Positions 11,698 to 25,452 of a stretch of 64,000 bases of DNA are shown here, in pieces. The DNA comes from Fistulifera solaris. Lineage: Eukaryota. The stretch covers positions 1-64,000 of the forward strand of contig AP026120.1 in assembly GCA_030295235.1 (NCBI GenBank), in the 5' to 3' direction. Position 1 is the stretch's first letter, and the number at the start of each line of letters is the position of its first letter. Made by a program: the position numbers and the translations under genes. The notes below the pieces were generated by a model that did no database searches, was not told where the DNA came from, and saw only the letters and a program-made list of their open reading frames with translations.

Positions 11698-11729
11698 TTA
11701 TGATAATAATTATATATGTAAAATATATA

Positions 11730-11794
11730 TTGAAATAAAAGGATTCGAACCTTTAGCATACCCTCTTATCACATCTTGTGATAAGATTATTTCA
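11730..11794 (-). ncRNA. tRNA-like element (t-element 1) between rps14 and atp6
   Basis: TGAAATA/TATTTCA acceptor, AAAGG-TTCGAAT-CCTTT T-arm, 10-bp hairpin in place of D/anticodon arms. Confidence 0.7.
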
Positions 11795-11828
11795 ATTATA
11801 CGTGTAGTTTCATAGCAAAAAAAGAAGT

Positions 11829-18396: not shown

Positions 18397-18470
18397 TAAT
18401 GAAAAAGGGACTCGAACCCCTGACATTTGGATCATGATTCCAACGTTCTAACCAACTGAACTATTCCATC
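18397..18470 (-). tRNA. trnM: tRNA-Met(CAU), probably elongator
   Basis: ATCATGA loop. Confidence 0.88.
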
Positions 18471-18471
18471 T

Positions 18472-20191
18472 TTATTTATTAAAAGGATAATCGATAGGAA
18501 GACTTGAATAAGTAACAGGATCCACAAATAGAGCCAAAGAAATCTTATAACAAGCTAAATATAATAAAGTTGGGTTACAAAATAAAAAAATTAGCGCAAA
18601 TATTAAAACACTTAAAATAATAGTTTTTTCTGAGTTTATAGGATAATATAATTTTCCTACTAAAATATTTTCGAAGTATAAAACCTTTATTAGTCTAATA
18701 TAATAAAAAGTAGAAACCACACTAAATACAATACTAGCTAAAGCTGGTAAATAATAAGAATTAATAATTAAAGGCAAAAATACACCCAATTTAGCTAAAA
18801 ATCCAACAAGAGGTGGAATTCCTGCAATAGAGAACATAGTTAGAGATAATGCTAAAGAAAGAGGTATATTTGATTTTCTTAGTAATGCGAGATCACCTAA
18901 TTCTTTATTGTATTTAGTCGTAATATTTTTTCTTTTTAATCTTAAAAACAATAGAATCGACCACACGCATAAACTAGAAATCATATAAATTATCATATAA
19001 ACTAATGCCATTTGAACTCCAGTAAAAGTGTCGGAACCCATTGCAATTAATATGTAACCCATGTGACTAGTAGAACTATACGCTAATAAAGTTTTTAATT
19101 TTCGTTGCTTTAATCCTCCAAACGAACCAACGAAAATACTAAAAACTCCAATAGATAAGAAATAAAAGTCCCACCATTCTTTTATCTCAAAGAAAGCCAT
19201 GTGACAAAGTCTGATTAGAACTACCAGTATACTTAATTTAGTAATTACTGCAAAGAATATCGTTGAACTAGTAGGAGATCCTTCATAAACATCTAACGAC
19301 CATAAATGAAACGGAGCTGCTGCTAATTTGATAAATAAACTAAATAAAATTAAAGTTAAACCTATTTCAACAAAATTAAAATAGTCGATGGTATAACCAA
19401 ACAATAAATCGTCAAAAGTCAAATCGTAAACTTCAATAAGTCTAGCGTAACTTGCTCTAAAGCTAAATGAAAAAAGCCACGACTCAAAGAAAAAACTTGG
19501 TAAATAGCCTATTCCAGGAAACCATTGTACCATAACATAATCATAAATAGAAGCATTATACATTCGATAAAAATCAAAAAAATTTATAGATCCAGTAAAG
19601 CCGTAAATAAATGAACTTCCTAATAAAAAAAAAGGCAGACGAAACGGCACCAGTAATAAAATATTTTATACCACTTTCAACCGAATAACTTGATGTTTTT
19701 TTGAAAGAAGCTAAAACATATAAAGCAAGACTAGATAATTCGATTGCTAAATAAGTAAGCAATAAATCATTACTACTACACATGATCAGTAAACCTAAAA
19801 CAGAAAATAAAATAATAATTAAATATTCAAATGATGTTAACTTTTGCTCTTTTAAAGAATCGGCAACAAATAGAAAATAAAGCCCTGAAAAAAAGCATAA
19901 CCAAAAGCGTGTAAAAGATGCAAGAGAGTCATAGATTACAGCGTTACTAAATGACAAAATATCCATGAAATACGATGCTGAAGTAAGATCATCGTTTAGA
20001 ATTAAATAGCATGCCATAAAAAGTGTTAAAGCCATACACTCACTAACCGCCTTTTGTAACATTAGCCCATTTGAATTATAAGTGATCAAAGTAATCACTA
20101 TTAATATATAAATAATACTAAGAGTAATAAAATACTCAGGAAATACAGTAAAAGACTGTAAAGAAACTACATTATATAAATTATTTACCAT
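18472..20191 (-). CDS. nad2: NADH dehydrogenase subunit 2 (frameshifted)
   Basis: KLAAAPFHLWSLDVYEGSP, AGIPPLVGF. Confidence 0.95.
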
Positions 20192-20796
20192 CAAATTTGT
20201 CAAAGAAGAAACTCGAATTTCGAGATAATTGTTTAGAAATAGACTGTTCTAATATTTGGCTTTTATTAAAATTATTTGTTAAATAAACAACTCCAATTAA
20301 AACAAGTAATAATGTAAAACCAGCAATTAAAAAATGTAAAACAAAGTAAGAATATAAAACGTGACCATAAACTTCGACGTCGGATACAGAATCAACCATG
20401 TCATACCAGTTTTGATATTTATTAAAGTAAAAAGAATTTGCTAAAAAATTAGTATTAAAATGATCAGAAACTAAATTTAACAAAGGAATAAGGAAGAAAA
20501 TGAAAAAAACAAAACCAATAGGAATATATTTTAAAGCATTCTTTGATAAATTGATTGATTTTGTATCTAACATCATAATAGCAAATAAAAATAAAACAGC
20601 TATTGCACCAACATAAATCACAATGAAAAGTAGAGCTAAGAACTCACATTCTAACAAAAATAGTAAGAACGATGAAAAAATAAAACACCCAACAAGGAAT
20701 AGTAAAGAAAAAACGGGATGTTTTGGAAACAATAACCATAAAAGCACAAAAAACTAAAAGAGAGGAAAATATTATAAACAATGTATTAGAATTCAT
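20181..20796 (-). CDS. nad6: NADH dehydrogenase subunit 6 (frameshift near 5' end)
   Basis: HPVFS, IYVGAIAVLFLF. Confidence 0.93.
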
Positions 20797-20899
20797 TTAA
20801 TAAAATATATAATTTATAGATTATAGAAGAAAAAAGATTGAAATTTTTTTATAAAATGTTACAAATTTTTTATTAGTATACATTTTTACGAGAATTAAA

Positions 20900-20988
20900 C
20901 AATTAAAATTTTTTAAATGATTCCCTACAAATAGTATTTGAAAAAAATTTTAATAAACACTTGAGTTCAAAACGAGTTCAGGTTAAAG
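20900..20988 (-). rRNA. rrn5: divergent 5S rRNA, possibly permuted; 3' end could extend to ~20837
   Basis: ACCTGAACTCGTTTTGAACTCAAGTG matches helix III/loop C consensus; TACTA..TAGGGAA loop E-like. Confidence 0.65.
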
Positions 20989-21037
20989 ATATGAAAATAG
21001 GGATTGAACCTATAAAATCACCTAATTGATTTTCATA
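20989..21037 (-). ncRNA. tRNA-like element (t-element 3) between rns and rrn5
   Basis: TATGAAA/TTTCATA acceptor, ATAGG-TTCAATC-CCTAT T-arm, single small hairpin. Confidence 0.65.
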
Positions 21038-21039
21038 TT

Positions 21040-22525
21040 TTTCCAGCTACACGTTCCCGTACAGCTACCTTGTTACGACTTCATCCAAATCGCTAATTTT
21101 TCAATCGGTTAGAACAAAGTCAAACCTTCAAGTAAAACTAACTTTCTGCATGTGACGGGCGGTTTGTACAAGGCTAATTGACATATTCACCGCAACATTC
21201 TGATTTGCGATTACTAGTGATTCCAACTTCATGTAAACGAGTTGCAGCTTACAATCCGAACTGGGAAAACTTTTAGGAGATTAACAAAAATTTAATTTTA
21301 GTTACTTTTTGTAATTTTCATTGTAGCACGTGTGTAGCCCAATTCATAAGGGTCACATTGACTTGGCTTAATTCTTCCTTCCTTCAACTTATAATTGACT
21401 GTAACTTTAAAGCTTTTTCTAAAATATTTTAGAAAAGTAAATAATTAAAGTCAAGAGTTGCGTTCGTTAAGGGAACTAACCAAACATCTCACGACACGAA
21501 CTGACGACAGTCGTGCAACACCTGTAATATTTCATTTTTTTAATTATCAGCAATAAATAAAAATAAAAATTTAATATTATGTCAAGAATTGGTAAGGTTT
21601 TGCGCGGATTATCGCATTAAACCACATGCTCCACCACTAGTATTAGCCCCCGTCAATTTCTTTGAGTTCCAACCTTGCGATCGTACTCCTCAGGCGGAGT
21701 GTTTATAGCGTTAGCTTAAAAATCTAAATAAATTTTAATTTTTACATTAAATTTCAACACTCATAATTTACAGGTATGGACTACCAGGGTCTCTAATCCT
21801 GTTTGCTACCCATACTTTCGTCCCTCAACGTCAGTTTTTACCAAAAAGTCGCCTTCGCTAATGGTATTCCTTTATATATTTACAGATTTTACCCTTTCGT
21901 ATAAAATTCTACTTTTCTGTATAAAACTCAAGCAAAGCAGTATTACAAGCTGTTTTAAAGTTGGGCTTTAAATTTTAACAAGTAACTTACTTTACCGTCT
22001 ACGGACTCTTTACGCCCAGTCATGATGAATAACGCTTGCCCTTCCCGTATTACCGCGACTGCTGGCACGAGTATTAGCCAGGACTAATTCTTAAGTAATG
22101 TCATTATCATTCTTAATAAAGAAGTTTACAATCAAAAAAACCGTCTTTCGTTCATTTAGTATTGCTGGATCAGACTTTCGTCCATTGTCCAATATTCCTC
22201 ACTGCTGGCCGAAAACTCAGCCTGGACCTTATTTCAGTTCCAGTGTGGTTGATCATCCTCTAAGACCAACTAAAGATCAAAGGCTTGGTAAGCTATTAAA
22301 TTTACCAACTACCTAATCTTACGCAGACCCATCTTTTAGCAGAAATACAAAATAACATCGTAAAACTTTTAAAATATTCATGATTTATGATTTTGTCATG
22401 AACTAAAAGGTAGCAGTCTGCGCTTTCCTCACCCGTTCGCCACGAAAATAATTCCGTTAGACTTGCATGTGTAAAGCATACTAGTAGCGTTCATTCTGAG
22501 CCAGAATAAAACTCATATTATAATA
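21040..22525 (-). rRNA. rns: small subunit rRNA (ends approximate)
   Basis: GTGCCAGCAGTCGCGGTAATAC, AAGTCGTAACAAGGTA. Confidence 0.97.
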
Positions 22526-22609
22526 ACATAAAATATTTATATAAAATTAAGTTAATTTGAATTTAAATCTAATTTTGAATTATGAAATAATGTATAAAAA
22601 TTTCACAAA

Positions 22610-23215
22610 GTTAAAAAATTTAAGTAATTTAATTTTAGTACTTGTCAGCTAAAAATTTTACAATTCTTACACTTCAAGCCTATCTATGTAATAGTCTTTT
22701 ACATTTATATAAAAACTGATTTTAAGGTTAATTTCTCGCTTAGATGCTTTCAGCGATTATTTATTACGAATTTAGCTACTCGACAGTGCTATTGGTATAA
22801 CAATCGATTCACCAGAGATTCGCTTTCTCCGGTCCTCTCGTACTAGGATTTAGTCCTTTCAGTTTTCAACACCTACGGTAGATAGGGACCAAACTGTCTC
22901 ACGACGTTCTAAACTCAGATCATGTACCGCTTTCATTGGCGAACAGCCAAACCCTTGGAACCACTTACAGCTCCAGGATGCGATAATCCAACATCGAGGT
23001 GCCAAACCATTCCGTCGATAGGGTCTCTAGAGAATGATTAGCCTGTTATCCCCGGCGTACCTTTTATTCATTGAGCGATAACCGTTTCCACTTAGAATTA
23101 TCGGATCACTATAACCGACTTTCGTCCCTGTTTGATTTGTCAATCTTACAGTCAAGCAAGTATATACTATTGCGCTTTAAAATTGGTATATATCAATTTA
23201 AACTTACCTTTGTAT

Positions 23216-25373: not shown

Positions 25374-25378
25374 AACTA

Positions 25379-25452
25379 GGCGAATAATAGGATTTGAACC
25401 TATGACCTCTAGAACCACAATCTAGCACTCTAACCAACTGAGTTATACCGCC
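25379..25452 (-). tRNA. trnH: tRNA-His(GUG)
   Basis: TTGTGGT loop, encoded G-1. Confidence 0.93.

Follow-up and report, generated by a model that had tools for sequence, protein, structure and literature searches.

A 49-base trnM remnant between rns and a 5S-like gene is most likely a cutting mark that separates the two

We analysed a stretch of 64,000 nucleotides of mitochondrial DNA (the window) and found that the gap between rns and a 5S-like RNA gene on its minus strand is occupied by a 49-nt tRNA relic (20989..21037), which consists of an acceptor stem, a D-arm-like hairpin, a T-arm and a discriminator and has no anticodon arm. This identification is based on the sequence itself, on covariation among relatives and on a leave-one-out model. 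A sequence-only reading of the same DNA had described a 'tRNA mimic' at the rns/5S border; the tRNA-like build and place were borne out, while 'mimic' should give way to 'relic', as the element descends from trnM(CAU). We put the chance at about two in three that the element, which we named E1, is a processing signal of the t-element type, at which RNase P and RNase Z would cut the transcript.

Positions 1-20607 of the window are repeated at 43319-64000 (99.5% identity and 90 gap openings between the two copies), and the window is therefore a circular mitochondrial genome of about 43.3 kb in concatemer form, from an indel-prone assembly in which the site of the element is present as a single copy. 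Its minus strand carries nad5, a tRNA gene, rnl (25374-22619), rns (22522 to about 21038), the 49-nt element, the 5S-like gene, nad6 (20181..20796, ATG at 20796-20794; Pfam PF00499), nad2, trnM(CAU) and trnR(UCU), in this order. The intact and functional trnM(CAU) downstream of nad2 and directly upstream of trnR(UCU) (18397..18470, minus strand) was identified with ARAGORN and by sequence comparison and is a paralogue of the relic. The frames of nad6 (near 20725), nad2 and nad5 are broken, probably by indel errors of the assembly; the base at 20725 is missing from an RNA contig of a relative. Of four sets of assembled RNA contigs compared with the window, X1 gave no match, X5, X12 and X13 cover rns, and X5 alone also covers nad6; 20786-21028 is covered by none of them. 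One low-depth contig of X12 (619 nt, 14 differences) has 23 unmatched letters beyond 21041, though such contigs cannot show RNA ends. The closest named homologue of nad6 belongs to the raphid pennate diatom Proschkinia (72% identity), and Phaeodactylum has the same rns, rrn5, nad6 synteny with an rrn5 of 124 nt (Valach et al. 2014, Table S1, PMC4267664); owing to this similarity and gene order, we infer that the window itself stems from a raphid pennate diatom. At the other end of the rRNA region, Rfam detected a tRNA (25379-25451, minus strand, 55.6 bits) that is absent from the ARAGORN list and adjoins the 5' end of rnl at 25374; its anticodon loop, read by eye, gives GTG (His), and it would punctuate the rnl 5' end. 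The spacer between rnl and rns (22523-22618, minus strand) is 96 nt long, very AT-rich and without a tRNA or a convincing minihelix, its best match to a minihelix model reaching 16.1 bits (E 4).

Read on the minus strand, E1 starts with the acceptor 5' strand TATGAAA (21031..21037), which pairs 7/7 with 20990-20996 and in front of which RNase P is predicted to cut (21038/21037). It is followed by a 4-bp hairpin (ATCA at 21030-21027 with TGAT at 21020-21017, loop ATTAGG at 21026-21021), a TTT connector (21016-21014), the T-arm ATAGG/TTCAATC/CCTAT (20997..21013; stem strands 21013-21009 and 21001-20997, T-loop 21008-21002), the acceptor 3' strand TTTCATA (20996-20990) and the discriminator T20989, after which the RNase Z cut is predicted. 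The minus strand reads identically to the partition given in the sequence-only reading, and every sub-coordinate agrees. All pairs of the acceptor stem (7/7) and the T-stem (5/5) are Watson-Crick pairs, a G-C pair closes the T-loop, and the acceptor 3' strand stacks directly on the T-stem. The t-element T-arm motif GGTTCRANYCC is matched by GGTTCAATCCC at 21010-21000, and its GGTTC..A..CC columns are invariant in 18 sequences. The hairpin (21017..21030) is probably what is left of the D-arm, with the GG of the tRNA elbow retained.

Both borders of the element are tight. According to the Rfam SSU alignment, the 3' end of rns (21038..21069, minus strand) comprises helix 45 (21069-21042, ending in GCTGGA) and an AAAA tail (21041-21038), and there is no identity over positions 1524-1533, i.e. 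no anti-Shine-Dalgarno tail; the start a few nucleotides past helix 45 claimed earlier is thus confirmed, with a gap of exactly 4 nt. On the other side, the element had been said to end directly at the 5S-like sequence. The two do adjoin, but 6 nt (CTTTAA, 20988-20983) lie between the discriminator and the conserved core, which begins (A)CCTGA. A functional tRNA gene, be it a cloverleaf or an armless variant, would have a 7-nt anticodon loop, whereas the middle of the element is a 4-bp stem with a 6-nt loop. We considered a functional armless tRNA and rejected it because the anticodon loop is absent and the middle is variable.

From the window alone, the element is hardly more than chance. Its minimum free energy (MFE) has a z-score of -1.44, with 19 of 200 shuffles folding equally well, and the proposed fold (-6.2 kcal/mol) compares with an MFE structure of -8.9 kcal/mol that lacks the T-arm. 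Ensemble pairing probabilities are 0.82-0.98 for the acceptor stem and about 0.04 for the T-arm and the inner hairpin. With 15.6 bits (E 4.2 in 901 nt), the Rfam tRNA model stayed below its cut-off of 29 bits, and ARAGORN called no tRNA at 20989-21037. Scanning the window for GGTTCAATCC returned the element site and three one-mismatch matches, all three in coding sequence or its repeated copy, which is no better than chance (4 found, 2.0 expected). What decides whether the element is real is the comparison with 49 related metagenome loci.

These relatives were collected by scanning an alignment of nad6 homologues against metagenome contigs, which gave 599 matching stretches, 278 of them confirmed; the best 80 of these were used. 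In 49 of the 80 loci, the rns 3' motif was found upstream of nad6 on the same strand, whereas the other 31 were too short or had another gene order. A 19-nt word of rns had no match in viral contigs. Together with the window, the 49 loci provide 50 rns-downstream spacers. An intact tRNA-Met(CAU), beginning 2-12 nt past GCTGGA, occupies 20 of them, two contain only tRNA-Ser(GCU), and one (L068) holds a different 49-nt mini-tRNA. The reduced element is present in 19 spacers including the window (18 distinct sequences, as L001 and L002 are identical), and the minihelix is absent from eight (L013, L019, L022, L027, L029, L031, L035 and L045). Conservation downstream of rns had been named beforehand as a check, and it came out with 18 relatives carrying the reduced element and eight without a minihelix. 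In four elements, boundaries were set by hand: L008 (3/5 T-stem pairs), L017 and L064 (1-nt indels each) and L034 (mis-placed by the script). The 5S-like core motif follows rns in 27/27 spacers with the reduced element or without minihelix and in 0/23 of the others. As 8 of the 27 sequences with a 5S-like gene (26 loci and the window) lack the minihelix, it is dispensable, or replaceable, in some lineages. The mini-tRNA of L068, a more distant relative (at about 1409-1457, after rns), has an acceptor stem quite unlike that of the window (GTCTTAA/GTAAGAC) and the same build, with a 4-bp hairpin, a 6-nt loop ending in GG and then a T-arm; it may be an independent reduction of another tRNA.

Where did the element come from? 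In the distant relatives, the acceptor stem of the intact tRNA reads AATGAAA/TTTCATT, and both this stem and the T-arm are of the kind that the reduced elements still have; by sequence comparison, the trnM(CAU) of the window at 18397-18470 is of the same tRNA type as the post-rns trnM of the distant relatives. We examined 12 of the 20 loci with an intact tRNA, picked for long flanks, and in 12/12 trnM(CAU) is located solely right after rns; in nine of these 12, trnR(UCU) lies downstream of nad6-nad2 and is not preceded by a trnM. Conversely, all 10 loci examined out of the 26 with a reduced or missing minihelix, as well as the window, have trnM(CAU) directly before trnR(UCU) past nad6-nad2, and none of the 10 has a trnM(CAU) after rns. 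A quick nad6 tree (49 rows, 182 columns, LG+G4; L061 was left out due to its short match) leaves many forks open and nevertheless unites all loci with a reduced or missing minihelix in one clade of 26 (SH-aLRT 100). Within this clade, six of the minihelix-less loci form one subclade (99), and L013 and L029 are placed elsewhere. The nad6 proteins of the clade are 57-73% identical to that of the window, and the element is kept across most of it.

Since the working trnM(CAU) is relocated past nad2 and an intact trnM stands at the same spot in relatives, the comparison identifies the element as a relic of trnM(CAU) and not as a look-alike. In the simplest history, the functional trnM would have gained a copy at the nad2-trnR junction at the root of the clade, the old copy would then have been reduced, and at least two or three later losses would have removed the reduced form. 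The clade with the relocated trnM(CAU) probably corresponds to raphid pennate diatoms. Some further observations were made in the minihelix-less loci. A 10-nt fragment of the trnM D-arm is still present in L027, which also matches a group II intron domain (RF00029, positions 1232-1315, 42.2 bits) at the start of its rns match. L019, L022, L027, L031, L035 and L045 have in common a conserved hairpin (stem AAATTTATG/CATAAATTT) in the spacer from the 5S-like gene to nad6.

We aligned the 18 distinct reduced elements and scored 211 cells against the stated structure, of which 93.4% were paired. Changes on both sides were found in 6 of the 12 pairs (four in the acceptor stem, two in the T-stem), and three T-stem pairs never vary. 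None of 500 shuffles reached any of five measures, and pairing fell to 48-71% when the 3' partner was slid by 1-3 columns. The columns of the minihelix have 84% pairwise identity, and the middle is unalignable and ranges from 11 to 57 nt. Still, a GG dinucleotide occurs in the middle of 16 of the 18 elements, compared to 7.4-7.9 expected, and 0/2000 shuffles reached 16. In tRNAs, the GG of the D-loop closes the elbow against the T-loop, and the retention of GG fits the keeping of this contact. GCTGGA plus AAA precedes the acceptor stem at the same spacing in 14 of the 17 loci with a reduced element. A covariance model trained on 17 relatives, with the window excluded, returned 20989-21037 (minus strand) as its top match in 46 kb searched on both strands (33.0 bits, rough E 8.5e-4). 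The shuffle tests overstate independence because the sequences are related, but the direction is clear despite this kinship: the comparison indicates that acceptor stem and T-arm are under selection, with compensatory changes while the rest has been scrambled. The window contains a further anticodon-less tRNA-like element of 69 nt (11728-11796, minus strand), located after nad9 and 30 nt before the atp6 ATG (11697). Its acceptor stem (ATTGAAA/TTTCAAT) comprises 7 bp, its T-arm (AAAGG-TTCGAAT-CCTTT) is canonical, and its middle is formed by an 8-bp hairpin whose loop has 5 nt; it was the second-best match of both minihelix models (33.4 and 31.8 bits) and was called neither by ARAGORN nor by Rfam at gathering score.

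The 5S-like RNA gene next to E1 (minus strand, putative ends 20895..20988, conserved block 20983-20899) was recognised by conservation in 26 sequences and by synteny. It has loop C/helix III and loop E-like motifs and the order rns, rrn5, nad6, and its Rfam score is below the cut-off: the mtPerm-5S model gave 19.5 bits on 20908-21013 against a cut-off of 39 bits (E 1.1). In eight whole relatives, Rfam found no 5S family at E<=1, and the published record has no rrn5 for 52 of 68 diatom mitochondrial genomes (PMC8987724). Applied to 26 sequences, RNAalifold yielded helix III as well as a helix of 10 bp in which the stretch following helix III pairs with the 3' end. Six pairs of this second helix are doubly changed, and the Rfam mtPerm-5S alignment splits it differently. 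RNAalifold gave no conserved pairing upstream of ACCTGA. Neither in 20899-20983 nor in the alignment of relatives did we find a convincing helix I or II; for helix I, pairing of the sequence before CCTGA with that after AATTG, judged by eye, gave 5-6-bp matches in several loci, which are inconsistent and could be due to chance in AT-rich sequence.

At the other end of the 5S-like gene, the spacer from its 3' block (...AATTGT) to the nad6 ATG was compared in L001-L018, L034 and L064. In the relatives, this spacer forms a second and smaller minihelix (E2), with an acceptor-like stem stacked on an inner stem-loop. In 14 of the 17 rows with a reduced element, the distance from the end of the MFE hairpin to the nad6 ATG is 0-2 nt, and in most of them it is exactly 1 nt, as for a discriminator; exceptions from this register are the window, L017 and L064. 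With model R2, E2 scored 28.1 bits in L010 and L014. The RNA bracketed by the 3' end of E1 and the 5' end of E2 measures 95-117 nt in 15 loci and is thus 5S-sized. In the window, the place of E2 is taken by a bulged hairpin (20853..20886, minus strand), which lacks a T-loop and is separated from the nad6 ATG by 56 nt.

Based on these findings, we suggest the following course of events. Once, trnM(CAU) stood directly after rns, until the working copy moved past nad2. The old copy lost its anticodon arm and most of its D-arm and kept the coaxial minihelix of acceptor stem and T-arm together with a GG-bearing loop able to close the tRNA elbow. For RNase P, RNase Z and the CCA-adding enzyme, a minihelix of acceptor stem and T-arm is a sufficient substrate. 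On a polycistronic rnl-rns-5S-nad6 transcript, the stub could fold like the top half of a tRNA and be cut by the enzymes that process tRNAs: with an RNase P cut at 21038|21037, rns would end in ...GCUGGAAAA, and an RNase Z cut behind U20989 would give the 5S-like RNA its 5' end. E2 would play the same role in relatives for the 3' end of the 5S-like RNA and the nad6 mRNA's 5' end, and in distant relatives the intact trnM after rns would bring about the same cuts as E1. As Rfam found no RNase P RNA gene within the window, the tRNA-processing enzymes must be nuclear-encoded and imported; presumably, these include a protein-only RNase P. Among the points against this account are that the T-arm is not favoured thermodynamically and that the second hairpin of the window is without T-loop and away from the ATG.

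But, could the hairpin simply be a part of its neighbour? Alone or together with the 3' strand of the acceptor stem, the T-arm hairpin might belong to the mature 5S-like rRNA as the 5' hairpin of a 'permuted' alpha domain, in which case the element would be cut on its 5' side only or not at all. The Rfam mtPerm-5S model indeed aligns 20908-21013, assigning its first hairpin to the T-arm and helix II to the acceptor 3' strand, and in the accessible part of their study, Valach et al. (2014, PMC4267664) give raphid pennate diatoms a 5' hairpin of about 15 nt as an alternative to a short helix I. We infer that their hairpin is this T-arm. The rrn5 of Phaeodactylum (124 nt) exceeds the conserved block of 85 nt found here; the same study states that RNA-Seq did not permit end mapping in diatoms (PMC4267664). 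However, the model stays at 19.5 bits and below its cut-off of 39 bits, and the Rfam alignment marks the columns of the hairpin as non-canonical. The distance between hairpin and core varies from 6 to 22 nt among relatives, the core occurs without the hairpin in 8 of 27 sequences, and nothing upstream of ACCTGA is paired in the RNAalifold structure of 26 sequences. The partner that Rfam gives to the acceptor 3' strand sits instead in the 10-bp helix with the 3' end, in which six pairs are doubly changed. Moreover, covariation links the 3' strand of the acceptor stem to its 5' strand, which adjoins rns and is upstream of the hairpin, and a 5S hairpin alone leaves this unexplained. With the element hairpin included, the gathering score of RF02547 is not reached, and the hairpin is neither integral nor constantly placed. 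We therefore regard a 5S hairpin, the main rival reading, as unlikely, while giving it a real if limited chance.

A second way to read the element as a functional part of the 5S module carries less weight with us. The relic might stay covalently attached to the 5S-like RNA and replace its weak or missing helix I (alpha) domain, or it might join the central protuberance of the mitoribosome as a free tRNA-like RNA beside a reduced 5S. This we hold to be very unlikely; if true, it would represent an independent tRNA-derived remodelling of the 5S module, recalling mammalian mitoribosomes, in which a mitochondrial tRNA takes the place of 5S rRNA. The element might also have no function and be a decaying trnM(CAU) pseudogene that stands where it does by historical accident. 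Its origin from a tRNA is demonstrable, its T-arm is lost in some lineages (down to a D-arm fragment in L027), and its fold is thermodynamically undistinguished. Neutral decay would nonetheless hardly be so uneven, with a scrambled middle of 11-57 nt beside stems that are 84% identical, 93% paired and compensated in 6 of 12 pairs. It also sits badly with the persistence of the element across most of a clade in which nad6 is only 57-73% identical to that of the window, with the GG retained in the middle and with a second minihelix in register with the nad6 start codon, which makes mere decay distinctly improbable. The smallest chance is given to the possibility that the actual product is the excised 49-nt RNA, which would be a small, stable and tRNA-like molecule in a non-decoding role (e.g. 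regulatory or CCA-tagged), with processing of its neighbours as a side effect. The sequence indicates no partner or target for such an RNA, the element is lost in eight relatives, its position is fixed at gene borders, and its conserved parts are exactly those portions of acceptor stem and T-arm on which RNase P, RNase Z and the CCA-adding enzyme depend. On the other hand, trnK-derived tRNA-like loci of eustigmatophytes are deemed selected with function unknown (PMC13449250), and plant t-elements accumulate stably with non-templated C or CA tails (PMC1920247), as far as the accessible parts of these papers go.

If E1 is indeed a cutting mark, it would offer a traceable case in which transcript punctuation survived the move of the punctuating tRNA gene, with only the enzyme-recognition half kept. 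It would provide a testable account of the rns 3' end, both ends of the 5S-like RNA and the nad6 mRNA's 5' end, and it argues that the 5' hairpin of the raphid pennate 'permuted-5S' is a tRNA T-arm located outside the 5S RNA. The elements would further constitute natural minimal substrates for organellar RNase P and RNase Z, composed of an acceptor stem, a T-arm and a GG loop, and should aid the annotation of rrn5 in diatom mitochondrial genomes. Our literature search, outside which most subscription-journal papers lie, found no report of such tRNA relics in diatom mitochondria. The main addition to what is known is the series from intact tRNA via minihelix to loss, together with two minihelices that bracket the 5S-like gene and a proposed reinterpretation of the 'permuted' hairpin.

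How does the element relate to known systems? In classical punctuation, tRNAs mark the borders of genes within mitochondrial polycistrons. The element shares its place and its predicted cuts with the intact post-rns trnM(CAU) of 20 distant relatives and differs in that the unit no longer codes for a usable tRNA. Like the hairpin of the permuted mitochondrial 5S (RF02547; PMC4267664), it lies downstream of rns and just upstream of the 5S-like beta domain; in contrast to that hairpin, it contains a T-arm within a covarying acceptor stem, is variably spaced, is absent in eight relatives and scores below the family cut-off. The tRNA-X1/X2/X3 loci of Vischeria (PMC13449250) are likewise ochrophyte mitochondrial paralogues of a standard tRNA with a variable or missing anticodon arm and an otherwise conserved remainder; they derive from trnK(uuu), and the accessible part of that paper states their function as unknown and reports no link to an rRNA/5S border.

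The closest likeness is to the plant mitochondrial t-elements of wheat and Arabidopsis (cox1, ccmC, nad6, rps4, ccmFN1; PMC1920247), which were found by means of the motif GGTTCRANYCC (Forner et al. 2007, PMC1920247) and for which, with this T-arm motif, RNase P and RNase Z ends were mapped, according to the accessible part of that study. Our element has the same T-arm motif and a tRNA-like, non-canonical fold, and, like them, it combines this motif with an acceptor stem and is non-decoding. Both kinds of elements are found at transcript borders, with cutting by RNase P and RNase Z proposed here and in part demonstrated in plants (PMC1920247). As far as the plant cases are described there, E1 differs in belonging to a stramenopile, in its length of 49 nt without anticodon arm compared to about 74 nt for the plant cox1 element, and in separating two structural RNAs (rns and the 5S-like RNA) by ends that are predicted only, whereas plant t-elements flank mRNAs. 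Unlike for these, both the parent tRNA of E1 and its relocation can be traced.
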